A stretch of DNA of 38,809 bases from an uncultured Clostridia bacterium. GTDB lineage: Bacteria > Bacillota > Clostridia > Christensenellales > UBA1242. The first letter of the stretch is position 1. Every line of letters starts with the position of its first letter. The notes below the pieces were generated by a model. It was not told the DNA's origin, ran no database searches, and saw only the letters and a program-made list of their open reading frames with translations. This document shows, in pieces, positions 384 through 27,789 of the stretch. Made by a program: the position numbers and the translations under genes. The stretch is from positions 1 to 38,809 of the forward strand of contig CANQWP010000001.1 in assembly GCA_947627585.1 (NCBI GenBank), in the 5' to 3' direction.

Positions 384-3300
384 TCAAATTTTCTCCCACA
401 ATAACATTGGCAAGTTTGATGTTGTGTCCCAAATTGTTTCGCTGAAATTGAATTTTGAGTCATATTTTTGTGACTGTCCGCAGTTTTGCATTCTGGAGGA
501 GATTCCGTTTGCGCACAAGTCGCCTTGCTCGGTCGAAAAGCAAGAATTCATTTCGCCAAACAACGTCCCAACAAGCACGCCATATTTCAAACTGGTGTGA
601 ATTTGAACGGTGCTATATGAAAATTCAATGCTCTTTCTCAGCGAAGGAAAACTTCCATAAAGTCCGCCAATTGCCCCGCCTTGAACTTCATTGGTTGTGA
701 TTGAGCCTGAGGCATAATTGTCATGCGAAGAGCTTTGCCCATTCCCAACAAGCCCGCCGATTGTCACACTGCTTGCTCTTTCAACAAGAATTTGTGAATT
801 TGAAAAACTCTCTTCGGTCTTTGATTTTTCTTTGTCTTCGCCAATCAAGCCTCCAATTGTGGCGCGCGAAACATCTTTTGCGTCAAGCGTCCCTTTGAAA
901 GCGCTTTTTGAAACTTCCCCGCCATTTTCTCCAACAAGGCCGCCGGCAACGACATCGCTTGAATTGGTGATGACAATTTTGACTTCGCTTTCACAAAGCA
1001 TCAAAACTCCGGCATTTTTCCCGGCGAAGCCACTGACAATTTCGGCTTTCTCAATTTCGAGTTCTCCAAGCGCTACACAATTTTCAATGCTCCCAAAATT
1101 TTCACAAACAAAAACTCCAAACGTTTTTGCCTTGGTGGGTTTTATGTTTCCCTCCACAGTCAAGTTTTTCACTGTCCCATGATTTGCGCGTAAAAAGGCA
1201 TCGCTCAAATTTGAAATTTTGTGATCTTTTCCATCAAACTTTCCGTGAAAATCCGCGGCCGTCCACTTTTTCTGCGAAAAATCCAAATCGTTTCCCAAAG
1301 AAAAGTTGGCATATTGCGCATTTTGCATGAGAAGAAGATCGTTTTGCGTCGTGATTTTGATTGTTGGTGGCAAAACAAAGAATGTGATGGCAAGAAGCAA
1401 AGCGTTCAGCACGCCCAGCACGAAAAGTGTCAAAAACGTGGCGATCTTGCCCCTTGAAAGCCTTTTTTTCTTGATGAGAAAATATATCAAATTTCCGGCA
1501 GCCGCAGCGGCGGCATATGCTACTGAAATAATGAGAAATGTTTGTGAAAAATAAGGATAGACTTCTTTTGGCATGAAAATTGACAAGGCAAAAAGCATCA
1601 AAGAAAAGCAAAGCGGAATGAATTCAAGAAAAATAATCAAAAATCTCTTCAAAAACTGTTTTTTTCTCAAACTTTCGAATTGTTGTTCTCTTTTTTTCTC
1701 AACGAAGCTTTGTTTTTCTTCCGTTCTTGAAAATCCTCCCGCCTTTTCTTCAACTTGAAGAACACTTATTGAGGAATCAAGTGACAACCCCAACAAAAGA
1801 AGTCTCTCTTGAATTTTGTCATAAAGGGTCTGAAAGTCTTCAAATGTTTGCACGCTGTCAATTTTTGCGAGATATTTTTCAAAAGGCTTGAGTTGGCTCT
1901 TGAAATAGTCCAGCCCGATTTTTGCGGCGTCTTGCTTTTCAATGTCAAGTAAAATTTTTTCGTTGCGGAGCAAAAAGTTCTTCAGTTTGCTTTTAAGTTT
2001 TTCTTTGTCAAGAAGGTCGGGTTGAAAGTTTGTTTTCGTGCCGGAAAAAAGATTGTTTTTGCTGACAATTGCGCCGTATAATTCGTCGTGTGCATCGTCT
2101 CCAATTTCCAAAAGCGTTTCCCATTCCGGAAAGTCGCTTGGCTTCACTTTTGAGGCAATCACCTCTTCATCGCTTCGACAATGACATTTGATTTGAATCA
2201 ATTTCCAATAAAGTTCAGCGTTTGCCTCCGCTTTTGAAATGGCAATGGAAACATATTTCTCCGCCATTTTGAAAAATTGCATTTGTTGCAAAGCGTCAGC
2301 AATTTTTTTTAAAAGCGAAACAAGAGCAGAATTGTCTTGAATGTAGGCAAGATAAAAATCAAGTTGTTTCTCCGCCTCCTCAAGATTGAAAAATGCGACC
2401 GGCAAAATCAGGTCAACAACAGCAGAAACAAATGCAATTCGGGCTTTTTCGTCCAAAAATTGCAGCATGTTTTCAATTTCTTCACGATTGCGATAAGAAA
2501 GTTTGTCTTTTGGCGTCTCAAAATGCCTCAACATCAAGGCAATGTTGCTTTGTGCGTGGCCGGAATCGATTTCCAGAATTTTTTGATAATATTTTTTGTC
2601 GTCATTTTTCTGCGCAAGCAAAAAATAGAATCTTTCAAAACGGTCCACCACGTCTCTGCCAAAACAACTTTCAACATTTTCAATCAACTGTTGGTCATTT
2701 GTTTCAACAGCTTTGTTTTCTGCGGCGGACACAAAGTTTTCGCGATTTGGCGTCTTGAAAGAAGCAAGAAAGGTCAAATATTGATTGTAAAACTCAACAT
2801 CGTCCAACTCTTGAATCAACATTTCCCATCTGTCAACAAAGTTTTCGCCAAAACTTTTGTTTGCATATCTCAAAATGTTTTCAATCTGATCTTTGTCAGA
2901 GAAGTTTGAAATTTTTGAGAAAAATTCTTCTTCAGAGCAAATCTTTTTCTCCGCCAAAAGCTTTGCAAACAAAAGATCGCTACTGTATGGCTCATCTTCA
3001 AGTTCTTTTTCAACAAGCTCTTTTGCGGTTTGAAAATCTTTGTTTTTCAGCGCCAAAAAAATCCACTTCTTTTTTGAGTCAGAACTGCTTGGAACGTTTT
3101 GAACTTCATAGTGTCCCAAGTCGACCGGAGAAATGCTTTCCAAATCGAGATATTCTTTTTTCTTTGGCCGAGCCTTTTCGACCCTGATTGTGTCAATTTT
3201 GGCAAGTTCAGTCTTTGCGTTTTCAATTTCGTTGACAATTCTCACTTCCAAATCTTTGGAAAACGAAATTGATGTTGTGTCCATGACATTTTTTGCTTCA

Positions 3301-4088
3301 AAGAATTCTTTTGGCAAACTTTCGGCGAGTTTTGATTTTTCCGTGCACAACACAAAGCTTGAAGCCGTTTTTTTTCGCAAAGTAATAAGGTGGAAATATC
3401 GGTCAAACAAGTTTTTAAAACGACCTAGCGGGCTTTCGTCCAAATAGCAACAAACAAAAACTTTTGCTGTCTCCAAAGCGCGAAAAGAGATCTCTTCGCT
3501 TTCTTTTTGAAGCAAATCGTCACAATTGAAAACGGAAAGTTCGTTTGCGTTCAACATTTTCAAGATTTCGTTTTGAAATTGTGTTTTCTTTTCTTCATCT
3601 TTGCAAAAAATGCTCAAAATGCAATCAAAAATCTTTTTTTGTGCGCCGGCCTCATATCCTTTTTTGATTTTTTCTGTCCTTTTTGAGATGTCAACAAGCA
3701 TTTTTGCGCGCTCTGGGGGCGCAATTGATATCGCTTTTTTCGCGTCCTCGTCTTCCAACAAAGAAACAATTTTTTCACCAAAAAAACATGGGCTTTTCAG
3801 CACTCCACGTTTGTTGGGATATATGACAATTTTGTTTTTTGCAAGGGCTCGTCCAAAAAAGGCTTCAAAGGACATTGGAAAAAGTGAGAGAGTTTTGTTG
3901 AATTCGTCAAGCGCTTTTTCAAATTGCAATTCACGCAGAAAATCATATGCACGGGCGATCAAAAACTCTTCGTCTTTTGATGCTTGCTCATCGACATAAA
4001 GAGTCCCGCAAAACAAGCATTTGACCATGTTTTGCCCAACAACTTCATAGTTTTTTCCGCCACAATTGTTGCACGCTCTTTCTCTCAT
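384..4088 (-). CDS. Zn-ribbon / TPR-like helical repeat / 3-TM / extracellular GLUG-repeat protein (1234 aa; last gene of the ESCRT-like operon)
   Basis: ATG at 4088, TGA at 384. aa 6-28 form a zinc ribbon (CNNCGG-x13-CLFCG). aa ~45-810 are mostly helical with TPR-like units. Three hydrophobic helices lie at aa ~814-839, 849-872 and 882-907 (nt 1368-1649). RKKQFLKR precedes TM1 and KKKRLSRGK lies between TM2 and TM3, which gives N-in/C-out topology by the positive-inside rule. aa ~945-1190 start with FHGKFDGKDHKISNL and then repeat GGLVG/GGLIG/GGLVGN/GGLYG, which are GLUG-type repeats. Confidence 0.85.
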   Translation of the reverse strand: MRERACNNCGGKNYEVVGQNMVKCLFCGTLYVDEQASKDEEFLIARAYDFLRELQFEKALDEFNKTLSLFPMSFEAFFGRALAKNKIVIYPNKRGVLKSPCFFGEKIVSLLEDEDAKKAISIAPPERAKMLVDISKRTEKIKKGYEAGAQKKIFDCILSIFCKDEEKKTQFQNEILKMLNANELSVFNCDDLLQKESEEISFRALETAKVFVCCYLDESPLGRFKNLFDRYFHLITLRKKTASSFVLCTEKSKLAESLPKEFFEAKNVMDTTSISFSKDLEVRIVNEIENAKTELAKIDTIRVEKARPKKKEYLDLESISPVDLGHYEVQNVPSSSDSKKKWIFLALKNKDFQTAKELVEKELEDEPYSSDLLFAKLLAEKKICSEEEFFSKISNFSDKDQIENILRYANKSFGENFVDRWEMLIQELDDVEFYNQYLTFLASFKTPNRENFVSAAENKAVETNDQQLIENVESCFGRDVVDRFERFYFLLAQKNDDKKYYQKILEIDSGHAQSNIALMLRHFETPKDKLSYRNREEIENMLQFLDEKARIAFVSAVVDLILPVAFFNLEEAEKQLDFYLAYIQDNSALVSLLKKIADALQQMQFFKMAEKYVSIAISKAEANAELYWKLIQIKCHCRSDEEVIASKVKPSDFPEWETLLEIGDDAHDELYGAIVSKNNLFSGTKTNFQPDLLDKEKLKSKLKNFLLRNEKILLDIEKQDAAKIGLDYFKSQLKPFEKYLAKIDSVQTFEDFQTLYDKIQERLLLLGLSLDSSISVLQVEEKAGGFSRTEEKQSFVEKKREQQFESLRKKQFLKRFLIIFLEFIPLCFSLMLFALSIFMPKEVYPYFSQTFLIISVAYAAAAAAGNLIYFLIKKKRLSRGKIATFLTLFVLGVLNALLLAITFFVLPPTIKITTQNDLLLMQNAQYANFSLGNDLDFSQKKWTAADFHGKFDGKDHKISNLSDAFLRANHGTVKNLTVEGNIKPTKAKTFGVFVCENFGSIENCVALGELEIEKAEIVSGFAGKNAGVLMLCESEVKIVITNSSDVVAGGLVGENGGEVSKSAFKGTLDAKDVSRATIGGLIGEDKEKSKTEESFSNSQILVERASSVTIGGLVGNGQSSSHDNYASGSITTNEVQGGAIGGLYGSFPSLRKSIEFSYSTVQIHTSLKYGVLVGTLFGEMNSCFSTEQGDLCANGISSRMQNCGQSQKYDSKFNFSETIWDTTSNLPMLLWEKI

Positions 4089-4097
4089 GTTTGCCTT

Positions 4098-5240
4098 TTA
4101 ACTTTGTTTTTTCGTTCTCTTTTTGATGTAGCCGTTGATCTCTTCATTATATTTTTCAAATTCGGCAATTTCTTTTTCGGTCACGCTTGGGGGCATTTCG
4201 TCCAGAACGCGATCAAAGTCGGCATTTGAAACAAGCACAACTTTGTCGGTGGCGATGGCCTTCAAAAGCGGCTCGTCTTTTGCGCGGTCACAAAGTTCTT
4301 CCAAATCGGCACCGCTATATTTTTCGGTCTGAGTCACAATTTTGTCAACGTCAAAATTTTTGGTCACCGGAACACCTTTCATGTTTTTTTCAATCATAAA
4401 CTTTCTTGCCGGCGCGTCAGGAAGTGGAAGATAAATCTTCTGCGAAAAACGCCCTGAGCGCATTGCGGCGCTGTCGATGTCCCACGGTCTGTTTGTTGCG
4501 CCCAAAAGCAAAAGATTCGGGTTTCTGCCCGCAAAGCCGTCGATTTGTTGCAAAAATTCGTTCACACGCTTGTCGTTGTGGGTGTCAAGTCCACGTTTTC
4601 CAATCAAGCTGTCCATTTCGTCAATGAAAATGATGGCGCGCTCTTGTTTGTTGGCCTCTTCAAAAAGCGAGTTGATATTTTTTTCGCTGTCGCCCACCCA
4701 TTTGCTGACAATGTCGCTGCCTTTGACGGCATAGAACTTTGCGCCGACCTCATTTGCAATGGCTTTTGCAATCATTGTTTTTCCGGTGCCCGGCGGGCCA
4801 TAAAGCAGCACTCCTCCGCCCGTCTTTTTTCCATACATTTTGTATTTTTCCGGATATTTTGTCGGGTTGATCATTTTGATAGTGATGGCTTTTTTGACAT
4901 CTTCAAGTCCGGCGACATCGTCGAAGCTTATGTTTGGAATTTGCGCGGCCTGCCATTTTTTGAGGTCGTCATCTTCTTCATCTTGTTTTTTGTCGCTTTT
5001 TCCGGTCTTTTCTGGCGCTTTTTGAAGGTTCTCCGAAATCTTCACAAGTCCCCGCGCCCTTTCCATGCGCACGGCTTTCAGTTTCCCTTGGCTTTGCTTT
5101 GCCATTTGCATCATCGTCTCGCTGGCCAGCAAAAAATTACGCTTTGCAAGGCTGACATTTCCTTTTGCACGCGCCTCTTTGCCTTTTTTCATATAGAGGT
5201 CAAACTGTTCGGACAAAATGTTGATGTTCGTTTCTTCCAT
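4098..5240 (-). CDS. Vps4-like (meiotic-clade) AAA+ ATPase with N-terminal MIT-like domain (380 aa)
   Basis: ATG at 5240 follows a GGTGA RBS. Walker A is GPPGTGKT (aa 148-155, nt 4776-4799) and Walker B is IIFIDEMD (aa 203-210). The pore loop is SKWVGDSEK (Vps4 has SKWLGESEK). The SRH reads ATNRPWDIDSAAMRSGRF. The C-terminal PSVTEKEIAEFEKYNEEING resembles the Vps4/spastin C-terminal helix. aa ~8-75 are three helices with a MIT-like pattern, followed by a charged linker. Confidence 0.9.
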   Translation of the reverse strand: MEETNINILSEQFDLYMKKGKEARAKGNVSLAKRNFLLASETMMQMAKQSQGKLKAVRMERARGLVKISENLQKAPEKTGKSDKKQDEEDDDLKKWQAAQIPNISFDDVAGLEDVKKAITIKMINPTKYPEKYKMYGKKTGGGVLLYGPPGTGKTMIAKAIANEVGAKFYAVKGSDIVSKWVGDSEKNINSLFEEANKQERAIIFIDEMDSLIGKRGLDTHNDKRVNEFLQQIDGFAGRNPNLLLLGATNRPWDIDSAAMRSGRFSQKIYLPLPDAPARKFMIEKNMKGVPVTKNFDVDKIVTQTEKYSGADLEELCDRAKDEPLLKAIATDKVVLVSNADFDRVLDEMPPSVTEKEIAEFEKYNEEINGYIKKRTKKQS

Positions 5241-5254
5241 ATTTCACCAAATTT

Positions 5255-5848
5255 TCAGGCTTCACTGTCAATTTTCTTGCGCACTTCTTCCATTTCTTTG
5301 TCAATGTTTTCAGAAGAAAGTTCGTCTTGGCTGGCTTGCTCCATGATAAATTTTTCAAGTTCTGCATCGGTCATGCCTTTTCCGCTCTTGTCTTTGCCGG
5401 CATTGTAGAACGTCTCTTGGCTCATTTCCATGAAGTTGTCCATTTGGTCGGTTTGAGTTTCAACAGCAAGCATTGCCTCTTCAAACTGCGCTTGGATTTT
5501 TGCAAATTCTTTTGCATCGGCAAGTTTTGTCATCTCTTTTGAAATGTCGCTCATTCCGCGTAAGAATTCACTTGTCATCATGGTGACGTCTTTCATTTGA
5601 GCGGTGATTTCAAAGTTGAGAAGCATTTCTTGCGCGCGCTTTTGTTGTTGAACTGTCATCTTATAGCCCGAAAGTGCAAGATTGAACTGTGCGTCCAAGC
5701 CTTTGAGCTTCGCGCGCTTTGCGGCGTCAATGAACACCTGCTTTTGCTCTTCAAGTCGATTGATTTGCTTGTTCATTGTGTTGATTGTGCGCTTGATCAA
5801 CATCTTTTTTTCGATTTCTTTTTGTTGTTTGCTTTTGAAAAGTCCCAT
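5255..5848 (-). CDS. Snf7/ESCRT-III-like protein (197 aa, CHMP2/Vps2-like layout)
   Basis: ATG at 5848 follows a GGAGGAA RBS. The N-terminus is MGLFKSKQQK (hydrophobic then basic). A long basic helical hairpin (...IDAAKRAKLKGLDAQFNLALSGYKMTVQQQKR...) aligns by eye with CHMP2A ...IKKMAKQGQMDAVRIMAKDLVRTRRYVRK.... The central ...LADAKEFAKIQAQFEEAMLAVETQTDQMDNFM is comparable to CHMP2A LKLPQIQKIMMEFERQSEIMDMKEEMMNDAI. The C-terminus is acidic and ends in the amphipathic helix DKEMEEVRKKIDSEA. Confidence 0.7.
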   Translation of the reverse strand: MGLFKSKQQKEIEKKMLIKRTINTMNKQINRLEEQKQVFIDAAKRAKLKGLDAQFNLALSGYKMTVQQQKRAQEMLLNFEITAQMKDVTMMTSEFLRGMSDISKEMTKLADAKEFAKIQAQFEEAMLAVETQTDQMDNFMEMSQETFYNAGKDKSGKGMTDAELEKFIMEQASQDELSSENIDKEMEEVRKKIDSEA

Positions 5849-5851
5849 TTT

Positions 5852-6466
5852 TTATTCCTCCATTTTCATCTTTTTCTTTTTATTTGGTTGCGAAGGGCTC
5901 GCATTTTCCAACAACTCCTGTTCATCTTTCATGGCGCTTTCTTTTTCAAACATTGTCAAAATTTCGTCCTCTGTTTTTCCAACGCCATAAATTGGCTGAC
6001 TGACTTCATATGCCGATTGCACCTCGGCAAAAAGTTCATCGGCGGAAGTGAGCACATCTTCGCTTGCAATTCTTGTTTCAAGCGCCTTGTTCAGAAATTT
6101 TGCCAATCTTTTTTGGTCGGCCAAAAGTTCCGACAGTGGCACTTTTGTTTGTGTCTTGAAGAATGAGTTGCTGTCATATGCATCTTTCAGCTTGTTCATG
6201 AGGCGAATGTTGTAAAGAAGATACATTCCCCTTTCCATGCAAGTTTGTTTCTCTTCATTCAGGTGTGTGATTTTTTTTGCATAGAAAAGTTGCAAGTCGC
6301 GGCTCTTTTCTTTCTTCCCCTTTTCCATAAGCGCGTCAATTTCTTTGATTTTTTGCAAGACTTCCGCCTCGACAGTCCGCTCTTGGCGTTCAAGTTCGCA
6401 AATTGAATTGACCAAATCTTCACGATTGAGATTTTTGAATTTGTTTCGTCTGAATGGCCACCACAT
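5852..6466 (-). CDS. second ESCRT-III/Snf7-like coiled-coil protein (204 aa, CHMP6/Snf7-like layout)
   Basis: I place the start at ATG 6466-6464, which shares one base with the upstream TGA (TGATG) and follows a GAGGGGGA RBS. The track's first codon is an in-frame TTG at 6469. The N-terminus is MWWPFRRNKFKN (aromatic then basic, like the Snf7 MWSSLFGW or CHMP6 MGNLFGRKK membrane-anchoring ends). ...LMEKGKKEKSRDLQLFYAKKITHLNEEKQTCMERGMYLLYNIRLMNKLKDA resembles CHMP6 ...LLRDGRKERAKLLLKKKRYQEQLLDRTENQISSLEAMVQSIEF. An acidic C-terminal half is followed by a KKKKMKMEE tail. Confidence 0.6.
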   Translation of the reverse strand: MWWPFRRNKFKNLNREDLVNSICELERQERTVEAEVLQKIKEIDALMEKGKKEKSRDLQLFYAKKITHLNEEKQTCMERGMYLLYNIRLMNKLKDAYDSNSFFKTQTKVPLSELLADQKRLAKFLNKALETRIASEDVLTSADELFAEVQSAYEVSQPIYGVGKTEDEILTMFEKESAMKDEQELLENASPSQPNKKKKMKMEE

Positions 6467-6825
6467 CAATAGTTGTCCCCCTCATTTATTTTGTTGATCC
6501 TCTCCAAAAGATCGGCATATATGTTTTTTTGTTCAGCATTTGCAAATTCCAAGGCATTTTGGCATTCTGGCAAAAGCAAAACGCTCTTGAATTTGACCGG
6601 CTCAGCAAAAAGTTGATCCTCGTTGGAAATTTGAAATTTTGAAAGCATCATTCCCCACCAAGCATCGGCACACTTTTCGTCGAGTGAAATTGCACGGGTG
6701 AAATTTTGCTCTGCTTGTTCAAAAAACTCATCGCTCAAATTCAAATATCCAAGGTCAAGCTCAATTTCAACATTTCTTTTTGTTTCTTCTTCCAAGCCTG
6801 CGCTTGCAACGTGATTTCTTTTCAT
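6466..6825 (-). CDS. small soluble TPR-like protein (119 aa)
   Basis: ATG at 6825 shares one base with the upstream TAA (TAATG). FFEQAEQNFTRAISLDEKCADAWWGMMLSKF is a TPR-like helix pair of the same flavour as the repeats in the 1234-aa protein. No TM segment. Confidence 0.6.
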   Translation of the reverse strand: MKRNHVASAGLEEETKRNVEIELDLGYLNLSDEFFEQAEQNFTRAISLDEKCADAWWGMMLSKFQISNEDQLFAEPVKFKSVLLLPECQNALEFANAEQKNIYADLLERINKINEGDNY

Positions 6826-7232
6826 TATGATTGTTCGTCCTTTTTGCGCTGAACAATGTAGGCCTCAATTTCTTCCAAAACGCGAAAGCAAGTTTCTTGA
6901 GTGTTGTCTTGTGCGGTCATGATTTTCAAATCGTCCAACCTATTTGCAAGTTTGTTGTCCACCAAAAGCACTTTCGCGTTTGTTGTCGGATTGAAGAAGC
7001 GTATGTTGTCCTTCACTTCCACAAGCCTTCGGCAAAGTTCATCGTTGCCGTTTGCATAAACAATGATGCTTTCGACATTTGCCACCATGTTTTGAATTTG
7101 TTTTTTGTTTTTCATCACTCCGTGCGAGCCCGTCTCTTCCTCACTTTTTGGCCTTTTGACATATTCGCGGACCACATAGAATGTGGCAAGTCCAACAATG
7201 GCAATCAAAATTGTAACATACAAATAAATCAT
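6825..7232 (-). CDS. single-pass membrane protein (135 aa), function unknown
   Basis: ATG at 7232 follows an AAAGGAGA RBS. The N-terminal TM is MIYLYVTILIAIVGLATFYVV, followed by REYVKRPK and then a ~100-aa soluble helical part. I recognise no family. Confidence 0.7.
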   Translation of the reverse strand: MIYLYVTILIAIVGLATFYVVREYVKRPKSEEETGSHGVMKNKKQIQNMVANVESIIVYANGNDELCRRLVEVKDNIRFFNPTTNAKVLLVDNKLANRLDDLKIMTAQDNTQETCFRVLEEIEAYIVQRKKDEQS

Positions 7233-7250: not shown

Positions 7251-8081
7251 TTACAACTTTTGCCCGCATTTTTGGCAAAACTTTGCATCAGTCGAATTTC
7301 TCTCTCCGCAATTTGCACATCTTTTTTCTCTGGACAGCGCCTGGCCACAATTTGAGCAGAATTTTGAATTTCCTTTCACCTCGGCGCCGCAGTTTGGACA
7401 AAAACCGTTTTTCTCGGAATTTTTTGAAAGAACGCTCAGCCGTTTATAGTCCTCGCTGTCAATGATGATGTTTGCAATGTTAAACGAAAACACGGCAATT
7501 CCATATTCACTTTGAAGTTTGTGCGAAAGTTCGCTCAAAACTTTTTCCGAAATGGCTTTTTTGTGCATTGAAAGCTGATTGAATGGCACATGATTTTTTG
7601 AAATATAATCCAAAATCACCAATTCCATCACCGAAACAACGGTCGAGCGCAGCCTTTCTTGCAACAAATTTGCTGTCAAATCTTTGTCCGACCCGATGAG
7701 ATAGAGATAGCACTTTCTTGGGTCGCCAATTTGCACGTCAAAATCGCCGCTGAAGCCAACGTGATAATTTTCGTTTGAGTCTTCGTCAAAAAGCACAAGT
7801 TTTTGCGACGTTCCCCACAAAAGTTTGAGTTTTGCAGTCTTGCTCATGAAAAGCACTTCGATTTGGCTTTCAAGATCCTCTTTCATATCCAAAAAATCAG
7901 CAAGGGCATATTTGCCGGAAGAAAGCGTTTGAAGCATCTGCCCGTCTTTGATCAGAATGGCGTTGTGAGTTTCCGGAACGATCACAGAAAGTTTTTGCGA
8001 AAGAGTCTCAACTGGAACTCTGCAAAAAAGTTTGTCGTTGTTTCCAGAGAACTTGATTGTGTTTGCCTGATTTTTCTCCAT
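7251..8081 (-). CDS. SPFH-fold, YdjI-like ('virion core protein-like', COG4260-type) protein with C-terminal double zinc ribbon (276 aa)
   Basis: ATG at 8081, TAA at 7251. The core ...LLWGTSQKLVLFDEDSNENYHVGFSGDFDVQIGDPRKCYLYLIG...LRSTVVSVMELVILDYISKNHVPFNQLSMHKKAISEKVLSELSHKLQSEYGIAVFSFNIANIII matches the pattern I remember for B. subtilis YdjI-type SPFH proteins (WGT..pi.l.D...v.lrafG.y...I.DP..f......yGi.l.sf.i.ni). The C-terminus (nt 7254-7406) is FCPNCGAEVKGNSKFCSNCG...RCANCGERNSTDAKFCQKCG, i.e. two CxxC-x9-11-CxxC ribbons. Confidence 0.75.
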   Translation of the reverse strand: MEKNQANTIKFSGNNDKLFCRVPVETLSQKLSVIVPETHNAILIKDGQMLQTLSSGKYALADFLDMKEDLESQIEVLFMSKTAKLKLLWGTSQKLVLFDEDSNENYHVGFSGDFDVQIGDPRKCYLYLIGSDKDLTANLLQERLRSTVVSVMELVILDYISKNHVPFNQLSMHKKAISEKVLSELSHKLQSEYGIAVFSFNIANIIIDSEDYKRLSVLSKNSEKNGFCPNCGAEVKGNSKFCSNCGQALSREKRCANCGERNSTDAKFCQKCGQKL

Positions 8082-8111: not shown

Positions 8112-8140
8112 AGTATAACAAAAAATTTTTTCAAAGTCAA
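8112..8140 (-). promoter_or_regulatory. promoter of the seven-gene ESCRT-like operon
   Basis: The minus strand reads TTGACT(8140-8135), a 17-nt spacer, then TATACT(8117-8112) with TGT immediately upstream (extended -10). It lies ~30 nt upstream of the ATG at 8081, and a terminator lies just upstream of it. Confidence 0.6.
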
Positions 8141-8222: not shown

Positions 8223-8717
8223 TTAGGCCTCTGCCTTATAGTTTTCAAGGTCAAAGTTGACTGTGTATGTCGCGCCCTCTTCTGCATCTTTTTCTGTGAC
8301 TTTCACGGTGAAAGACTTTTCATTGCTTTCAACCACACGAACAAGTTGCAAAACGTCGTCTTTTTCTGTGTCATTTGTGCTTGTTTTGTTGTCTCCCAAA
8401 ACGCCGGTATATTCCACCTTAGATCCGGCTTTGAAATCAACTTCAACAATCACATAGGCTTTGCCCTTATATTTTGTTGTGCCGCCCCAAACCTTTGCTT
8501 GATCTTCGGTCAAAGTGTTGGCTGTTCCGCTGACAACAAAGGTGTTTTCTTTGTCTTTGGCAATTTTAAGTTTGTCGCCATTGTTGAATTTTTGCGCCGA
8601 AATTGTGACATCACCAGAAGCAAGTCTCACGGCCATTGGCTCTCCACAAGACGCAAGCGTAAGTCCGCCCACAAGCAAAATTGCAAGGCATGCCATGATT
8701 GACAAAAGTTTTTTCAT
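8223..8717 (-). CDS. small lipoprotein (164 aa), function unknown
   Basis: I trim the track ORF (TTG at 8732) to ATG 8717, which follows the GAGGAGG RBS. The signal peptide is MKKLLSIMACLAILLVGGLTLASC with the lipobox LASC. The mature part is beta-rich. Confidence 0.8.
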   Translation of the reverse strand: MKKLLSIMACLAILLVGGLTLASCGEPMAVRLASGDVTISAQKFNNGDKLKIAKDKENTFVVSGTANTLTEDQAKVWGGTTKYKGKAYVIVEVDFKAGSKVEYTGVLGDNKTSTNDTEKDDVLQLVRVVESNEKSFTVKVTEKDAEEGATYTVNFDLENYKAEA

Positions 8718-8946
8718 GTTTTTCCTCCTCAAAGATTAACACTGTGGGCCTTGCACAATCGACTTAATATGCTCCCGACTGTGTTTGAACTGCGCGGAAA
8801 GTGTCTTTTCGCGTTTAATCTAGTATGTCAAGCGGAAAGATTTTTATTCTTTGTCACATTTTTTGAGCAAAAGCAATAAATTGATAATGTGCAAAAAGTT
8901 TAAGCACATAAAAGTCGTTACATAAGAAATTTTTTAGGAGGCACAA

Positions 8947-9159
8947 ATGAACTTTTTTGGAGGCTCAAATTGTGGCAATGTAGGGGAAAATTGTGGTGGC
9001 GGAAATGACTGCTGCTCTCTCATCTTCCTGCTTTTGCTCTTGCAAAACTGCGGTTGCGGTTTTGGCGGCTTCAAAGGCGGAATCAACATCGACTGTGAAA
9101 CACTTTTGTTCTTGATTTTGCTCTCAAATCTTGGCTGCGGCTGTGGCTGCGGCAAATAA
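8947..9159 (+). CDS. Cys/Gly-rich hydrophobic miniprotein (70 aa) with internal duplication
   Basis: An AGGAGG RBS lies 6 nt before the ATG, and terminator 9184-9212 follows. The sequence is MNFFGGSNCGNVGENCGGGNDCCSLIFLLLLLQNCGCGFGGFKGGINIDCETLLFLILLSNLGCGCGCGK, which contains two copies of [C-x-S/T-L-hydrophobic8-N-x-GCG-x-G]. Confidence 0.7.
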   Translation: MNFFGGSNCGNVGENCGGGNDCCSLIFLLLLLQNCGCGFGGFKGGINIDCETLLFLILLSNLGCGCGCGK

Positions 9160-9183
9160 GCCAAAAATCACAACTTGAAACTT

Positions 9184-9212
9184 CCCCTCTCCAAAAGGGG
9201 ATTTTTCTTTTT
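9184..9212 (+). terminator. rho-independent terminator of the miniprotein gene
   Basis: Stem CCCCT(9184-9188)/AGGGG(9196-9200) followed by ATTTTTCTTTTT. Confidence 0.65.
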
Positions 9213-9391
9213 GTTTAAGAATTTTTAATCAACCACTTTCAAAATTGACTGTTTTACACATTTTCAAAATTTTGACTTTTCAACTTTCCACTTTTTTGTC
9301 TGTTTTTCATGAAAATTTGCACAAAAACGCTTGTTTTTTCGTGATTTTTGTTGTAAAATAAAATCAAATTGATGGCAAAGGAGAAATTGAT

Positions 9392-10835: not shown

Positions 10836-11438
10836 TTATTTCTTTGTTGTTTTTGCAGGTTTTTCGGCCTTTGTTTCGTTTTGCTTTTTCAGCTCTTCCA
10901 AAATGCCTGTCAAAAGTTCTTCTTGAGTTGGTTTTGGAGGCTCTGGCGCTGGTTTGTTCTTTTCGCGAAGTTCAAGTGTTGCTTTTTTCACTGTTTCGCG
11001 GTCATGCATGTCAACGCCATCGGCCTTCAATTGTGCACGTTCTTCTTTTGTTGGACGGCCTTCTTTGACTTTGTCAGTCATGCCGTGTGCTGCCATGAGG
11101 GCTTTCAAAATCAAGAACAACACCATTGCAATGATAAGGAAGTTCAAAATCGCCGTGATGAATGCGCCCCAGTCGATATATATGCTGGCATCAAGATTGA
11201 CAATGCCTGTGGTCGGGTCAACGACTTTTCTGAGGAATGTGTAAGCGCCCTCCACGCCCCTTCCACCGGTGATTGCTGCAATTGCCCAATTCACAAGCGG
11301 CATGATGATTTTGTTTGTGAATGCCGTCACAATTGCGCTGAAAGCAGAGCCGATGATTACGCCAATTGCCAAGTCAACAATGTTTCCACGCGAAATGAAT
11401 GCTTTGAAATCGCTGAAAAACTTTTTGATTCTTTTCAT
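10836..11438 (-). CDS. mscL: large-conductance mechanosensitive channel MscL with long charged C-terminal extension (200 aa)
   Basis: ATG at 11438 follows an AAGGAGA RBS. The N-terminus FKAFISRGNIVDLAIGVIIGSAFSAIVTAFTNKIIMPLV is the canonical MscL TM1 region, and TM2 is WGAFITAILNFLIIAMVLFLILK. About 70 extra K/E/P-rich residues follow. Confidence 0.9.
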   Translation of the reverse strand: MKRIKKFFSDFKAFISRGNIVDLAIGVIIGSAFSAIVTAFTNKIIMPLVNWAIAAITGGRGVEGAYTFLRKVVDPTTGIVNLDASIYIDWGAFITAILNFLIIAMVLFLILKALMAAHGMTDKVKEGRPTKEERAQLKADGVDMHDRETVKKATLELREKNKPAPEPPKPTQEELLTGILEELKKQNETKAEKPAKTTKK

Positions 11439-16469: not shown

Positions 16470-19400
16470 TTAATAATTCTTTAAAATTTTCTTTCGCTTT
16501 TTCATTTTTATCACCGTGATTGCCAAAGCAAAAACGCACAATGCCGAAATCACAAACACCGAAACAATCACCGCGTAATCAACCCATGCCTCGTCGTCGA
16601 TTGCAATATAAAATTCCCCAAGAGACAATGCTGAAATTATGATTTGACCGTTTGCATCTTTTTCGCTTTCAAGAAGTTCAAATGTACCGTCTTCCAGTTG
16701 TTTATAAATATATATGTTATTTTTGTCATAAATGGATTTTGGCAAATTTATTTTGATTGTAAACAAACTGTTTGTGCTGACCTCGTGAGAGCCGTTTTCA
16801 AGCCATATGCGATATTTAAGCAAAAGTCGCTGATTATGGATTTTTTTCAAGCCATCAAGGCTTTCTTTGGAATAATTAAGCACATAGTTGTCATACAAAA
16901 CCGGGTCTTTTGCAGAAACGCTGACATCTTCTTTTTCAATCTTGCCCAAAGTTATGTCGCCATAAAGGACTTCGGGCAAAATCAAATTATAGTTGTCTTT
17001 TTTCTCCCCTGAAAGAGAGATGTCGTGAACATGAACAGGAATGTTTTTGCCAACTTGTGAACTCTCAAATTCCGCACTGTTGTTTTTGTCATACAAAGGA
17101 TAAATTTCATCAATTGTTCCGGAAATGTATGGGTTTTTGAGCCAAGCACGCGTTGTGCCGTCATAAATTTTGTCATAGATTCCAGAAATTAAGTATACAT
17201 CTTTTTTCAAAATTTCAAGCTGCGCCGGAAGAAGCGTGATTTCATAATTGGAATTATAAATGCTGTTGACAAGATTATATTTCCCAACATCTTCGCCGGC
17301 TTCTCGCGTGATGATGCCATAAAGCTTGTCACCCTCCAGAAGATTTCCTTCAACAATTTCAAAATCAAAAGATGGGTCGCTTTGGCCGTATGTTTTTTCG
17401 TAGTTCTCACTTTGGATTGTAAGCTTCAGCGGACGGATTGTCACCTCGCCTTTGATGTAGGTGATGTTGTAATTCCTGTTTATTTTAAGCTTGCTTATGA
17501 TGTCATATGCACCAACCGAATTTCCCTTAACTCTTTGCAACGAGCCTTGGATTAAGTCACCATCCAAAAGTGTTCCGGAAACAATTTGATATGAAAGTTC
17601 TGGCTCAGTGTCTCCATACACAATTTCAACACTGTTTGCTTTCAGTGTGATTTCGCGTGGAAGTATCGTGAAATAATGTTCGCCAAAAACAATTTCGTAA
17701 TTTGGATTTTCAAGTGTTGAGTGAATTCTGTATTTTCCGGTGCTTTCTCTTTCAATTTTGTCTTTGTCTCTGAAAAGTCCGCCTTCAAGAACGTCTTGCC
17801 CCACAAGTTCGCCAACAAGTTGATATTCAATTTCAACATCTTCTTCGCCATATTGTTTTGAAAGCGTGATTGGCACAACTTCCACAATTTTTTTCTCAAT
17901 TTCAAAATTCTTGCTTATAAAATCAAAAGAATAGTTTTCGCTGAGATGAATGTCTCCTTGCAAAATTGCATAAAAACCGACATTTTCTCCTTCTTTTCTT
18001 GAAAGTTTACCTTCAACTTTGTCGCCAAACACCAGCCCTTCAGCAGAAACTTCAAAAGAAAACTCTGGATCGGCATCCCCATATGTCTTTTTGCTTTCAA
18101 TCGCCGTGATTGTGATGTGCCTTTTGATGATTTCAAAACTGCCGCTTTCAAAAGTGAGAACATAGTTTTTCCCAAAAGAGAAGTCCCCGCGATCGATGGA
18201 ATATGTCCCAACATTTTCGCCTTCTTCTCTTGAAAGCTCTCCTTGGGCAATATCTTCCAATCGATCGTTGTTTTTCAAGAATCCTTTTGTGATTGTGACA
18301 CTCAAAGACGGGTCTTCGTCACCATATATCTTCACTTTTTTGTCAGCCTTCACCGAAACTTCGCATGGCGTAATGGTCAAAAATGCTCCGTCCGCGAATT
18401 CAATGGCATATCTTGCATCGTTTGTTGTCCCACAAAGAAGTCTATATTCCCCCACATCTTCGCCATATTCACGAATGATATGAACGCTCAGCTTTTCTCC
18501 TTCAACCTCATTTTCGACAGAATATTCAAAAACAGGATCGTCTTCTCCATATGTTTTTGTTGAGTTTTTGCCTGTGACAACAACCGGCCTTTTCAAGATT
18601 ATGAAGTTTGTGTCGCCACTTGTTTTGAAGACATAGTTTGCGCTTGTTGAAATATGCTCAACATCATATGCATACACGCCAACAGCTTCGCCTGCTTGAC
18701 GTTCAATTTTGCCGTCAATCACTTCTTCGACTTTGTCGTCAAAACATAATTTGTCAACAATATCAAATTTGATTGTTGGATCTTCATCTCCAAAATATTT
18801 TGTTTGATTTTCCACAAAGATGCTGATTTCTCGTGGCAGAATTTCAAAACTGGATTCCACCAAATTGATGTCATAGTTCGGATTTTTGATTGCATAAGTT
18901 TCGTTTAAACGATATGCATAGCTTCCAACATTTTCGCCTTCTTGACGTGCAATTTCCAGATCAAGAGATTCGCCTTCCACAACTCTGTTTGCAGCAAATG
19001 TGAAAATTGGGTCTTGGTCTCCATATGTTTTGCTTGATGTGTCCACAAAAATGTTGACTTTGCGTTTTGAGATCTCAATTTCAGAATTAAAGTATTGATA
19101 TTTGAAGCAATAGTTCGACATTTCCTCACACGAAATTTGATAATCTTCCACACTCACTTTTGCTTTGCCGCAATCCTTGCTTTCCAGCAGAGCGTTTATT
19201 TTAAGCAAAAATTCGGCTTCTTTAATGTTGTTGAAAAATTCAACTTCGTGCTCCACATTTGTCGTTCCGTCATATTCTTTATCCAAAAAGTGAACAAGGA
19301 TGGTGATTTCTCTTGGAGTGATTTCAAGAACGTTTTCGGTGAAAACTATGTTATAGTTTGAATTGTTTAAAGTCCCCTTCAAAATTTTGTAACTTCTGAC

Positions 19401-21608
19401 ATCTTCGCCCTGTTCACGTTCAAGGCTTCCAAAAATTTCATCTCCGTCAACAAGGTTTGAGACAGAAAATGTCAGCGACGGATCTTTGTCTCCAAAAGTT
19501 TTGCTTTTTCGTTCGGCCTTCACGAAAGCGTCTCGTGGAACAATTGTGCAAATGGCACTTTCAAAACTTATGATATAGTTTGGATTTGAAAGGTTTTCTT
19601 GTTCAATCAAATGCTGACCAACATATTTGCTGTCAATCTTAAGTGAACCGGTCAAAACATCTCCTTCAAAAAGATCGCAGTCATATTCAAGCAAAATTTC
19701 TTCGCCGTATGTGAATGTGCATTCTTTCGCCTTGACAGTGATTGGTTTTGGATCGATGTTTCCAAAAATTGGCTGAACATATTCTTCCAAAACATAATTT
19801 TTGCTGTCGCTGCCATAAAGTTCTGCTTGCGTGATTTTGACATCAATTCCCTTGCCGGCATCTTTTGAGACAAACTCCCCTGAGAGAGAAACTTTGACAT
19901 CTTCGTTGTTGAAAATGTTTCTCAGTCCGGCATTTATTGTCGCTTCGCGCGTTGCATCATATTCCTTTTCTTCAACGGTGACATTCTCAAGACTGAGTTT
20001 TCTTGGTGTGATTTCAAACTGTGCGCTTGAGCTGTCAATAACAATGTTATAATTTGGATTTTTCTCTTCCAAATTTCCACTTGTGATGGCATATTTTCCA
20101 ATCTTTTCGCCTGCTTCTCTGCCAAGATTGCCCGAAAGTTGTTCTCCTTGAACAAGATTGTCGGCCTCATATTCAATCGACGAGTCAGCGTAGCCATATT
20201 CTTTTTTCGTGTCTTTTGCAACAACTTTTGCATCTCTTTTCAAAATTTCGCCATATGAATTTGGCAAATTCTGAGATTTGAGGGCATAAATTTCTGCATT
20301 TTTGCCTGTCAAAACAAGTTCCTCATATGATACATTTATCAATTTATGCTCCCCTGCATTTGGATCGCGATATGAAAGGGAAATTCCTTCCAACCCCAGC
20401 TGGTGACCTTCTTCAAGCCCGTCAAATTTCACAGATGCTGTGCTTTCATCAATGTCCACTGTGCCGTCATATACACGGCTTTGAACTTCAATGCCAGAAA
20501 TTGTTATGTTTTTTCTGAACTTGGCAAAAACGTATTTCCCGGCGCTTGTGACAAGCCTTCTGTTTTTTGAAACGTAACTTCCGTCAACATACCATCCCAA
20601 AAATTCAAAGTCTTGCTTTGGTGTCACGTTGAGGGTGATTGGTTTCCCAAAAAGATATGTGCCCGTTCCAAAAAAGTTTGCAGGATCAAAAAAGTCAGAA
20701 TCCACTTCCACGTCCACATAAATTTCTTCTGGATTTGCAATTGTGAATGTCACATAGTTTGTGGAATATATCTTTTGAGTGGAATAGGAGTTTTGATTGC
20801 AGAAAACTCGGAACGTGATTGGCTCCCCGCTTGGAGCATCTTGTTTGATGACAAAGTTGCTGCCAACGATGTTCACATATTCAGAGCCAGAAACAAACTC
20901 ATAGTGAATTTCGTGGTTGATTTTTGAGAAACTGATAAAGTTTCCATTTGAGCCCGATATTTTTGTGACTTCGTTATATGCGTTCACTTTGACAGTTTGC
21001 CCAGGAGCAACCTTTTGATTTTCACAATCAAGTGTGACGCTGTCAATAATGGTGTAAAGATGAATTGTCGGGACGTCAATGACAAATTCATTTTCTCCTC
21101 TTGGCGAAGATGTTTCAAAAGAGAATCTAATGTTTTGTTCAAAGTCTTCAATTTTAAGCAAATCCGTCTCAACATTTCCGCCGCTTGAGCTGACCTCTTT
21201 AAATTTGTCGCCAGAAGAAATTTTGATTGTCACTTTTGTGTTTTTTTCTGTTTGAATTGAAGCTGTTGCTTTTGCAAAAAGCAAGCCTTTCTCGATAAAC
21301 GGCTGCATGTCCGGTGTTGGACACAACTCGCTCCAACCCGAGCTTGTCCCGGATCCATCATCAACAATGGAATAATATTCTCCACCATTTTCTGTTGTTT
21401 TGGCATTCACAAAGGTGTCATTTTTGCTGTCATCTTTGAAAAAATGTTCTGGACTTGTGCCTGCAAGACCTGTGAGAACATATCTGTTTCCGGCCACACC
21501 ATCAATCGATGCTGCGCTTGCAATTTGGAAATTTGGCATAGGGAAAAACATGCAGGCAAAAACCAGCATAATCAAAACTATGAACATTTTGTTAAACAGT
21601 TTTTTCAT
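16470..21608 (-). CDS. giant surface protein with MBG (YGX-type) and YDG repeats and a C-terminal TM anchor (1712 aa)
   Basis: ATG at 21608 follows a GGGAGGGG RBS. The signal peptide ends ...IASA/AS. FEFLGWYVDGSYVS is a Listeria-Bacteroides-type repeat motif. By manual count there are ~11 units of K-x-YG-x-xDP...G-x-L-x-R-x-x-GE-x-VG-x-Y-x-I...NYNI....F-x-I-x-PR and ~4 YDGT-type units. The C-terminus is a TM (YAVIVSVFVISALCVFALAITVI) followed by KMKKRKK. There is no LPXTG. Confidence 0.85.
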   Translation of the reverse strand: MKKLFNKMFIVLIMLVFACMFFPMPNFQIASAASIDGVAGNRYVLTGLAGTSPEHFFKDDSKNDTFVNAKTTENGGEYYSIVDDGSGTSSGWSELCPTPDMQPFIEKGLLFAKATASIQTEKNTKVTIKISSGDKFKEVSSSGGNVETDLLKIEDFEQNIRFSFETSSPRGENEFVIDVPTIHLYTIIDSVTLDCENQKVAPGQTVKVNAYNEVTKISGSNGNFISFSKINHEIHYEFVSGSEYVNIVGSNFVIKQDAPSGEPITFRVFCNQNSYSTQKIYSTNYVTFTIANPEEIYVDVEVDSDFFDPANFFGTGTYLFGKPITLNVTPKQDFEFLGWYVDGSYVSKNRRLVTSAGKYVFAKFRKNITISGIEVQSRVYDGTVDIDESTASVKFDGLEEGHQLGLEGISLSYRDPNAGEHKLINVSYEELVLTGKNAEIYALKSQNLPNSYGEILKRDAKVVAKDTKKEYGYADSSIEYEADNLVQGEQLSGNLGREAGEKIGKYAITSGNLEEKNPNYNIVIDSSSAQFEITPRKLSLENVTVEEKEYDATREATINAGLRNIFNNEDVKVSLSGEFVSKDAGKGIDVKITQAELYGSDSKNYVLEEYVQPIFGNIDPKPITVKAKECTFTYGEEILLEYDCDLFEGDVLTGSLKIDSKYVGQHLIEQENLSNPNYIISFESAICTIVPRDAFVKAERKSKTFGDKDPSLTFSVSNLVDGDEIFGSLEREQGEDVRSYKILKGTLNNSNYNIVFTENVLEITPREITILVHFLDKEYDGTTNVEHEVEFFNNIKEAEFLLKINALLESKDCGKAKVSVEDYQISCEEMSNYCFKYQYFNSEIEISKRKVNIFVDTSSKTYGDQDPIFTFAANRVVEGESLDLEIARQEGENVGSYAYRLNETYAIKNPNYDINLVESSFEILPREISIFVENQTKYFGDEDPTIKFDIVDKLCFDDKVEEVIDGKIERQAGEAVGVYAYDVEHISTSANYVFKTSGDTNFIILKRPVVVTGKNSTKTYGEDDPVFEYSVENEVEGEKLSVHIIREYGEDVGEYRLLCGTTNDARYAIEFADGAFLTITPCEVSVKADKKVKIYGDEDPSLSVTITKGFLKNNDRLEDIAQGELSREEGENVGTYSIDRGDFSFGKNYVLTFESGSFEIIKRHITITAIESKKTYGDADPEFSFEVSAEGLVFGDKVEGKLSRKEGENVGFYAILQGDIHLSENYSFDFISKNFEIEKKIVEVVPITLSKQYGEEDVEIEYQLVGELVGQDVLEGGLFRDKDKIERESTGKYRIHSTLENPNYEIVFGEHYFTILPREITLKANSVEIVYGDTEPELSYQIVSGTLLDGDLIQGSLQRVKGNSVGAYDIISKLKINRNYNITYIKGEVTIRPLKLTIQSENYEKTYGQSDPSFDFEIVEGNLLEGDKLYGIITREAGEDVGKYNLVNSIYNSNYEITLLPAQLEILKKDVYLISGIYDKIYDGTTRAWLKNPYISGTIDEIYPLYDKNNSAEFESSQVGKNIPVHVHDISLSGEKKDNYNLILPEVLYGDITLGKIEKEDVSVSAKDPVLYDNYVLNYSKESLDGLKKIHNQRLLLKYRIWLENGSHEVSTNSLFTIKINLPKSIYDKNNIYIYKQLEDGTFELLESEKDANGQIIISALSLGEFYIAIDDEAWVDYAVIVSVFVISALCVFALAITVIKMKKRKKILKNY

Positions 21609-27788: not shown

Positions 27789-27789
27789 G

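Follow-up and report, generated by a model that had tools for sequence, protein, structure and literature searches.

The closest described relatives of the system considered here are the PspA systems of Firmicutes, the archaeal Cdv machinery and the ESCRT systems of eukaryotes and Asgard archaea. In the pspA-ydj operon of Bacillus subtilis the SPFH protein YdjI carries a band-7 domain and a C-terminal zinc ribbon (PMC11237479), and YdjI together with the membrane proteins YdjG and YdjH is needed for recruitment of PspA to the membrane (PMC8581546). A 2025 review describes PspA systems as lacking a Vps4-like ATPase, and such an ATPase as apparently absent from bacteria (PMC7619361). A survey of phage-shock-protein systems recorded Snf7 homologues sporadically in bacteria as well as bacterial ATPases of the MIT-Vps4-like type, and called snf7 displaced from the operons of these ATPases (PMC11237479). 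Here we analyse a 38,809-bp contig from a Clostridia metagenome-assembled genome (MAG), referred to throughout as the window, whose minus strand carries a seven-gene operon in the order SPFH protein with zinc ribbons, small transmembrane protein, TPR module, protein B, protein A, MIT-like AAA ATPase and large zinc-ribbon protein; A, B and the ATPase are annotated as hypothetical. Our reading, which we hold to be probable while leaving considerable room for doubt, is that A and B form the two subunits of a bacterial ESCRT-III-type polymer serviced by the adjacent MIT-like AAA ATPase.

Protein A resembles the A-type ESCRT-III subunits of eukaryotes and Asgard archaea (CHMP2A/Vps2, CHMP3/Vps24, CHMP1B/Did2) in profile similarity that extends over about 140 residues of the alpha1-alpha4 core, in length, in its MGLF-type N-terminus, in the pairing of a basic hairpin with an acidic tail, and in a C-terminal helix similar to MIT-interacting motif 1 (MIM1). 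It differs from them in its bacterial host (gut Clostridia MAGs), in being too divergent for the Pfam Snf7 model, and in carrying a Glu at the position of the central Arg of MIM1. The operon as a whole departs from eukaryotic and Asgard ESCRT in that no ESCRT-I or ESCRT-II genes were recognised among the annotated genes, and its partners are SPFH-zinc-ribbon and zinc-ribbon/TPR/TIR-like proteins. With the archaeal CdvB/CdvB2-CdvC and 'Meth_adaptin' loci it shares the placement of ESCRT-III-type genes directly upstream of an MIT-like+AAA gene, and with the euryarchaeal Meth_adaptin systems the presence of an SPFH plus zinc ribbon protein in the locus (PMC10936438); the top fold matches of the A and B models are likewise CdvB or CdvB2. 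Unlike the archaeal systems, it holds no recognised winged-helix (ESCRT-II-like), CdvA or adaptin-like genes, it resides in a bacterial host that also has FtsZ, and its ATPase domain lies as near to Cdc48 D2 as to CdvC.

The combination of an SPFH (Band_7_1) protein with a C-terminal zinc ribbon, a small membrane protein and a polymer-former of the ESCRT-III superfamily is that of the Firmicute pspA-ydjGHI operon, and the logic common to the two is likely to be membrane-stress repair; the clostridial operon differs in that its polymer-former is of Snf7 and not of PspA type, probably comes as two subunits and is accompanied by a dedicated AAA ATPase. By architecture, the ATPase and the large protein also match the 'MIT+Vps4-AAA -> TPR+TM(s)' dyad (TM, transmembrane segment) of other bacterial phyla (PMC11237479 supplement; ACB74714.1, Opitutus), with the difference that the Bacillota operon has two ESCRT-III-like genes in front of the ATPase. 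Full-text literature searches turned up no account of a clostridial operon that pairs ESCRT-III with an AAA ATPase. Machines of this kind are known, and the bacterial version with these partners appears to be undescribed.

Proteins A and B

The gene for protein B occupies positions 6466..5852 of the minus strand (204 aa, ATG start, N-terminus MWWPFRRNKFKN) and is followed by the gene for protein A at 5848..5255 on the same strand (197 aa, ATG start, N-terminus MGLFKSKQQK). The mechanically called open reading frame (ORF) of B begins at an in-frame TTG one codon 5' of this ATG, and the orthologues start with MWWPF or MWPF. The ATG of B and the TGA of the gene upstream share a single base (ATTGATGTGG), the TAA of B is separated from the ATG of A by a 3-nt spacer (AAA), and a GGAGGA is present 5' of the ATG of A. 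Both proteins are predicted to be nearly wholly helical, each with a long hairpin at its N-terminus, and a transmembrane-like segment is predicted in neither. Isoelectric points divide each chain into a basic N-terminal and an acidic C-terminal half, at 10.1 for residues 1-100 of A against 4.3 for residues 101-197, and at 9.1 against 4.9 for the two halves of B. Single-sequence searches returned 557 homologues of A and 438 of B at E<=1e-3, the close ones bearing the names 'Candidatus Caccovivens sp.' or 'Clostridia bacterium'. With hundreds of homologues, strong conservation within the operon and a short B-to-A gap that is retained across loci, A and B are real genes and not chance ORFs. The first-pass annotation had described a coupled gene pair with hydrophobic-basic N-termini, basic N-terminal halves, acidic C-terminal halves and no transmembrane segment, and all of these features are present. 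Its mention of a myristoylated N-terminus was dropped for the MG start of A, as this modification is not expected in bacteria.

Conservation was followed in a scan of GTDB species representatives, which returned 80 loci and 109 confirmed by tblastn; the scan was seeded with a six-sequence subset of A, and its exact peptide patterns bias the 80 loci towards one clade. Among Christensenellales-like Clostridia of the gut, 80 species or more have the seven-gene operon, and all 80 loci come from gut-derived Clostridia MAGs (Caccovivens, Coproplasma, Christensenellaceae and similar), among which A is 56-96% identical. A is present in all 80, the AAA ATPase in 79, B in 77, the SPFH protein in 75, the small transmembrane protein in 67, the large zinc-ribbon protein in 60 and the TPR module in 59, part of these absences falling at loci truncated by contig ends. 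B lies directly upstream of A in nearly all of the 77 loci that have it, at a distance of no more than 5 nt in 57 of them, so that the tight coupling proposed for the window pair, with its 3-nt gap, extends well beyond this contig. Mean identity in close and distant loci, respectively, is 86 and 61% for A, 82 and 52% for B, 79 and 62% for the ATPase, 56 and 38% for the SPFH protein and 41 and 25% for the large protein, which makes A, B and the ATPase the best-conserved genes of the operon. A scan of viral contigs found no relatives, and a phage origin is therefore unsupported.

As judged from family profiles, protein A is a Snf7/CHMP-family ESCRT-III protein of the Vps2/24/46 ('A') type and not a member of PspA/Vipp1. 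A HMMER search of 1.84 billion 50%-identity representatives with A returned 352 clusters at E<=1e-3, of which 196 passed E<=1e-10, and 95 full-length relatives, 23-54% identical to A, were aligned as the A family. Only this 95-member profile gave matches to known families, and it did so for A only. Its best match in the PDB was human CHMP2A (7zcg_B; E 2.5e-6, profile positions 8-150), followed by CHMP1B, CHMP3, Sulfolobus islandicus CdvB and yeast Vps24, with ESCRT-III chains making up 8 of the 17 matches; no PspA or Vipp1 chain appeared at E<=10 in the PDB profile searches with the A and B families. The CHMP2A match by HMMER carries a high compositional bias term. Individually, 17 of the 95 members match Pfam Snf7 (PF03357; best 1.4e-9) and one further relative scores exactly at the gathering threshold, and PspA_IM30 (PF04012) is absent from the Pfam families listed for the 95. 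Aligned by hhalign with the CHMP2A fragment taken from the PDB alignment, the A profile reached a probability of 88% and a score of 40.2, against 14 for the reversed sequence and 12.0 +/- 2.2 for 30 shuffles. Generic coiled-coil similarity is disfavoured for A, since the reversed and shuffled controls fall to null. In the same type of comparison Escherichia coli K-12 PspA gave 0.8% with A and 0.4% with B, in agreement with the earlier remark that neither protein looks like PspA, and membership of either protein in PspA/Vipp1 is rejected on these values below 1% together with the missing PspA_IM30 matches. As a lead only, with small hand-entered CHMP sets, A lies nearer to 'A-type' Vps2/24/46 (94%, E 1.8e-7) than to 'B-type' Snf7/Vps20 (53%, E 1.3e-4).

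These results bear out the view, first reached by eye, that A is of Snf7/CHMP rather than PspA type; its closest neighbours are CHMP2A, the one proposed by eye, CHMP3 and CHMP1B. The first of the two hand-aligned CHMP2A blocks (AAKRAKLKGLDAQ... against IKKMAKQGQMDAV...) stands in the same register as the HMMER family-profile alignment, and the second agrees with it apart from a 4-residue gap. The AlphaFold2 model of A places helices at 7-48, 52-106, 112-150, 161-173 and 179-196 in the order expected for ESCRT-III, with a mean predicted local distance difference test score (pLDDT) of 64, and Foldseek finds CdvB at ranks 1, 2 and 4 with E 0.09-0.4; at these pLDDT and E-values the fold evidence is consistent with ESCRT-III and not decisive. 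An MGLFKSK-like N-terminus recurs through the A family. Within the last 30 residues, the pattern hydrophobic-x3-hydrophobic-x2-hydrophobic-[KR] occurs in 29 of the 95 members against 3.7 +/- 2.0 in shuffled tails, and the version with a central R/K, corresponding to the MIM1 core LxxRLxxL[KR], in 14 of the 95 against 0.5 in shuffles. The tail of A itself reads IDKEMEEVR, with Glu in place of the central Arg. The C-terminal amphipathic helix of A is MIM1-like, a putative MIT-interacting motif, and both terminal motifs of the family fit ESCRT-III biology.

As a separate observation, in about 20 relatives of A (P0299-P0325, P0349, P0352, P0363, P0374, P0378) the A-like domain forms the N-terminus of proteins of 350-800 aa, with E of about 1e-15 to 1e-24 over about 180 residues. 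The fusion partner in ten scanned relatives is RuvB_N/RuvB_C, in some cases alongside a NERD nuclease, or else FtsK_alpha/FtsK_SpoIIIE, and the ESCRT-III-like domain is therefore linked in them to DNA-translocase-type ATPases. Two metagenome scans seeded with distant members of the A family (P0385 and P0347) found no loci.

Protein B belongs to a separate family that is conserved as well as A, comprising 438 clusters by single sequence and 899 by profile. It is probably a second, divergent ESCRT-III-like subunit, though not demonstrably so, and this view draws on a profile match to the A family, the predicted hairpin fold and the position directly upstream of A. No similarity between A and B is found by BLASTP or by shallow hhalign. 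Comparison of the full families by hhalign gave a score of 28.3 (P 1.2e-3, probability 19%) that is colinear over 162 columns (B 2-179, A 1-173), against 11.8-13.8 for reversed profiles and 13.5 +/- 2.1, with a maximum of 18.6, for 30 column shuffles. The N-terminus is aromatic and basic (MWWPFRRNKFK in the window, MWPFKSKY in most lineages), and B and A are alike in size, helix order, charge asymmetry and the kind of N-terminal motif. In the AlphaFold2 model the hairpin (15-52/56-98) is predicted at a pLDDT of about 85 and the remainder at 45-75, with three to four shorter helices after the hairpin (111-128, 137-156, 166-188). Foldseek returns CdvB2 filaments at the top (probability 0.94-0.97, TM-scores 0.39-0.46, all E >=0.13), and 17 of its 30 top matches are ESCRT-III, Vipp1 or IST1 chains. 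Paralogy of A and B, as originally proposed, is thus backed by a weak, above-null profile match and by fold matches short of significance. The further proposal that B resembles CHMP6/Snf7 could not be reproduced, because the family, PDB and hhalign searches were negative; single-sequence and shallow-profile searches of B against Pfam, NCBIfam and the PDB gave no match, and hhalign against CHMP2A and E. coli PspA stayed below 1%.

The ATPase and the other products of the operon

The gene downstream of A (4098..5240, minus strand) encodes a 380-aa protein with an N-terminal three-helix MIT-like domain, an acidic linker, one AAA cassette and a C-terminal helix. Pfam AAA is matched at 2.3e-42 over residues 144-273, and the sequence shows intact Walker A and Walker B motifs (GPPGTGKT, IIFIDEMD) together with an aromatic pore loop (SKWVGDSEK). 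Over nearly its full length the protein aligns with the NCBIfam CdvC model (residues 10-367 with model positions 8-367 of 370, 201.4 bits), and CDC48 (D2) scores 214.5 bits over residues 100-368 only, with FtsH at 196 bits. Vps4_C falls just below its gathering cut-off of 21.3 bits, at 21.0, and an orthologue scores 20.2 bits. The top PDB matches are p97/Cdc48 D2, and a PDB search with its C-terminal third, aimed at separating Vps4 from Cdc48, again put p97 D2 first. A profile of the first 80 residues finds as its best PDB match 2mpk_A ('Chitin synthase 1', a 74-aa chain) at E 0.0076, which we take to be an MIT domain. With a hand-entered VPS4A query, and so as leads only, hhalign gives 8.6% between the N-terminus and the VPS4A MIT domain, and VPS4A scores 179 bits at 36% identity. 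We regard the ATPase as Vps4/CdvC-like in architecture and not as a proven Vps4 orthologue, the wording being confined to architecture because the AAA domain is at least as close to Cdc48/p97 D2. In distant loci (L056:6584-8140, L058:6613-8109, L064:6759-8243, and L066-L068, L073 and L078) the ATPase is longer, at 480-530 aa, by an extra C-terminal domain of about 110-150 residues that ends in a conserved G-[IL]-x-E-x-[DE]-hydrophobic-x-[IL] or similar tail, and in one locus (L070:2364-4553) it is a 729-aa tandem double-AAA protein.

The first gene of the operon (7251..8081, minus strand) encodes a soluble SPFH protein of 276 aa that matches Band_7_1 (4.4e-15), Zn_Ribbon_1 (7e-16) and DZR (3.4e-11); no transmembrane segment is predicted in it, and with its two C-terminal zinc ribbons it is of YdjI type by architecture. 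The next gene (6825..7232, minus strand) encodes a 135-aa protein with a single N-terminal transmembrane helix at residues 2-20, a candidate membrane anchor for which Pfam, NCBIfam and PADLOC scans gave no family match. It is followed by a 119-aa TPR-like protein (6466..6825, minus strand) with weak TPR matches, whose stop codon is the one that overlaps the start of B by 1 nt. By blastp this protein matches the 518-583-aa zinc-ribbon-TPR-TIR proteins of loci L062, L063, L071, L076 and L079, and it shares the 'AxWG..LS' motif; on this basis it is read as a free-standing version of the module found behind the zinc ribbon at the N-terminus of the TIR/TPR partners. The last gene (384..4088, minus strand) encodes a membrane protein of 1234 aa composed of a zinc ribbon, a TPR-like module, a TIR-like domain, a long helical region and three transmembrane helices at 817-906, followed by a C-terminal extracytoplasmic domain with GG[LA][IV]G repeats. 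Its residues 6-268 align to a zinc-ribbon-TPR-TIR protein at E 3e-12. The TIR-like domain (about 150-270) is degenerate and gives no match to Pfam TIR; the position of the catalytic-type Glu of W-x-x-N-E-W holds Leu in the window protein and a hydrophobic residue (L, I, V, F or Y) in every one of 54 close orthologues. By this missing Glu the domain would be dead as an NADase.

The best sigma-70-like promoter candidate (8112..8140, minus strand) lies about 30 nt upstream of the first gene and reads TTGACT, 17 nt, TG-TATACT; it has 10 of 12 matches plus an extended -10 and is a consensus match only. No terminator-like site was found between the operon genes on the minus strand, where both matches fall inside coding sequence, and the operon has no anomaly in GC content.

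Proposed mechanism and competing explanations

Taken together, the module is most likely an ATP-recycled ESCRT-III-type system for membrane remodelling or repair, possibly linked to defence. In the mechanism we propose, the soluble YdjI-type SPFH protein and the small transmembrane protein would recruit the polymer to the membrane from the cytoplasmic side, as YdjI, YdjG and YdjH do for PspA. Protein B may bind the membrane through its aromatic and basic N-terminal motif and nucleate the polymer, and A would co-polymerise with B and offer its C-terminal helix to the MIT-like domain of a hexameric ATPase. The ATPase could then draw subunits through its SKWVGDSEK pore loop, so that the polymer is remodelled or recycled. 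The zinc-ribbon/TPR/TIR-like membrane protein, with its repeat domain facing the wall, may act as a site-selector or as a sensor of the state of the wall or envelope. The output would most likely be to mend damaged cytoplasmic membrane, or to cut it, when the envelope is under stress, possibly also from phage, a preference that follows from the analogy with PspA-YdjGHI.

Several results weigh against this reading. Protein A alone, or together with close relatives (84% identity or more) in a shallow profile, finds no match in Pfam, NCBIfam or the PDB, and its assignment is based on a profile of metagenomic relatives; cluster look-ups supplied a single organism name, that of a Bacillota MAG. Model confidence is modest for both proteins (pLDDT 64 for A and 67 for B), and no Foldseek match of either model reaches E<=1e-3. 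Among 31 diverse orthologues of B none has a Pfam match to Snf7 or PspA_IM30, the PDB search with the B profile returned no ESCRT-III chain, and hhalign of B against CHMP6, CHMP4B and Snf7, with hand-entered queries and to be taken as a lead only, stayed below 1%. Residues 1-102 of the ATPase have no Pfam match, MIT included, and its AAA domain shows no preference for Vps4/CdvC over Cdc48 D2. Finally, TIR, trypsin-like and BrxL-like genes in related operons point to a conflict system and not to housekeeping repair.

This last point is the basis of a serious, non-exclusive rival, in view of the TIR, protease and BrxL partners of sister lineages: the operon may be primarily an anti-phage or conflict system, in which the ESCRT-III-like/AAA core regulates, or serves as membrane effector for, zinc-ribbon-tagged TIR (NADase-type), trypsin-like and BrxL-like proteins, the window lineage holding a reduced version with a dead TIR. 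We think this unlikely, while giving it real weight; it overlaps the ESCRT-III polymer reading at the molecular level and differs from it in physiological purpose only. Distant loci add genes that, except for the BrxL-like ones, open with the same zinc-ribbon module as the 1234-aa protein of the window. Zinc-ribbon-TPR-TIR genes lie inside the operon in many of them, often between A and the ATPase, and 28 of 31 of their products keep the catalytic-type Glu of W-x-x-N-E-W; zinc-ribbon-trypsin-like peptidase genes occur in 18 loci and short BrxL-like ATPase genes in 8 (PADLOC BrxL, 668 bits). Sister-lineage examples of the TIR, trypsin-like and BrxL-like genes are at L061:6611-8350, L061:8423-10174, L067:9509-11698, L061:11446-12387, L064:8254-9015 and L067:8063-9499. 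A shared N-terminal zinc ribbon on swappable partners is typical of conflict systems. One report (PMC11153139) ties PspA itself to phage stress and to regulation of the cyclic-oligonucleotide-based anti-phage signalling system, CBASS. Against a conflict role, PADLOC has no matching model for A, B, the SPFH protein, the transmembrane protein or the large protein, and the match of the AAA protein to IetA (133 bits) lies below generic AAA matches. The operon of the window lineage lacks an active-looking TIR, protease or BrxL, the residue at the Glu position being hydrophobic in the window protein and its 54 close orthologues. The flanks are ordinary chromosomal sequence conserved within lineages (ppk-like genes, ftsA-ftsZ) and form no defence island, the viral contigs yielded no relatives, and inheritance looks vertical, with the core apparently under strong purifying selection.

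A different challenge, in our estimate just as unlikely as the conflict system, accepts A alone as an ESCRT-III protein and takes B to be an unrelated helical adaptor, comparable to archaeal CdvA or to a partner of ESCRT-II/Vta1 type, that recruits or regulates A. It can draw on the absence of Snf7 and PspA matches in the 31 orthologues and of ESCRT-III chains in the PDB profile search, on an hhalign probability to the A family of just 19%, on Foldseek E-values that are all at least 0.13, and on the fact that no MIM1-like tail is seen in B by eye. It has to contend with the colinear 162-column match to the A family, well above its shuffled and reversed (12-14) nulls, with the 17 of 30 top fold matches that are chains of the ESCRT-III superfamily, and with the likeness of B to A in size, helix order, charge asymmetry and N-terminal motif. 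A role in division or abscission, as in archaeal Cdv, in place of repair is improbable. The operon stands directly downstream of ftsA-ftsZ in two Christensenella-like loci (L067:1552-4030 and L068:24-1298, the span including ftsZ), and ESCRT-III/Vps4 drives division in Sulfolobales (PMC10017037); only 2 of the 80 loci adjoin ftsZ, however, these bacteria retain FtsZ, and where the two coexist division falls to FtsZ and ESCRT-III has another task (PMC7619361). Most improbable of all is that A and B have nothing specific in common with Snf7/CHMP and are generic coiled coils or belong to the PspA/Vipp1 branch. Empty single-sequence searches and the compositional bias of the CHMP2A match speak for it, and are countered by reversed and shuffled controls that drop to null, by PspA, which is similar in composition and fold and yet goes unmatched, and by the 17 relatives that match Pfam Snf7 and not PspA_IM30.

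If the ESCRT-III polymer reading is carried further, gut Christensenellales-like Clostridia would possess a complete, vertically inherited ESCRT-III/Vps4-type machine, with two ESCRT-III subunits, an MIT-AAA recycler and an SPFH recruiter, that performs ATP-driven scission or repair from the cytoplasmic side and is coupled to immunity or to vesicle cargo sorting by swappable zinc-ribbon-tagged partners (TIR, protease, wall-facing sensor). We offer this extended version tentatively, as a possibility well short of an even prospect. Were it true, the pairing of ESCRT-III with Vps4 would not be limited to archaea and eukaryotes, and would have been gained by gut Firmicutes from archaeal neighbours or be older than currently thought; whether the system was transferred from gut archaea or has old bacterial roots matters for the history of ESCRT-III. 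What is observed is the adjacency, across 80 or more species of animal-gut bacteria, of a Snf7-branch protein as assigned here, a second ESCRT-III-like protein and an MIT-like AAA ATPase. Should the biochemistry hold, the operon would offer mechanistic studies a simple ESCRT-III/ATPase system from bacteria with two subunits, would make the antiquity of SPFH recruitment of ESCRT-III polymers testable, and would allow a connection of ESCRT-type membrane repair with TIR-based immunity to be put to the test.

Genomic surroundings

In the window the operon is flanked by mscL, NUDIX, Fe-ADH and ABC transporter genes, genes for Big_2/MBG surface proteins and two tRNAs. In the Christensenella-like locus L067, an ORF that is FtsA-like by eye precedes ftsZ. 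Between a lipoprotein-like gene (8223-8732) and a bPH_2 gene of the window lies a gap of about 660 bp (8733-9391) with no convincing gene and no Rfam match, in which the mechanical ORFs read as low-complexity runs (PQPQPQ, GCGCGCG) and a terminator-like hairpin is present at 9183-9201 on the plus strand. An MscL homologue (10836-11438, minus strand; 200 aa), encoded some 3 kb away from the operon, matches Pfam MscL over residues 7-130 and carries an unmatched tail of about 70 residues. Further along are two adjoining minus-strand genes for giant surface-type proteins, one of 1712 aa with nine MBG_2 and three YDG domains (16470-21608) and the other of 2085 aa, which combines Big_2 repeats with a hyaluronate-lyase-like beta domain at its N-terminus (21627-27884).

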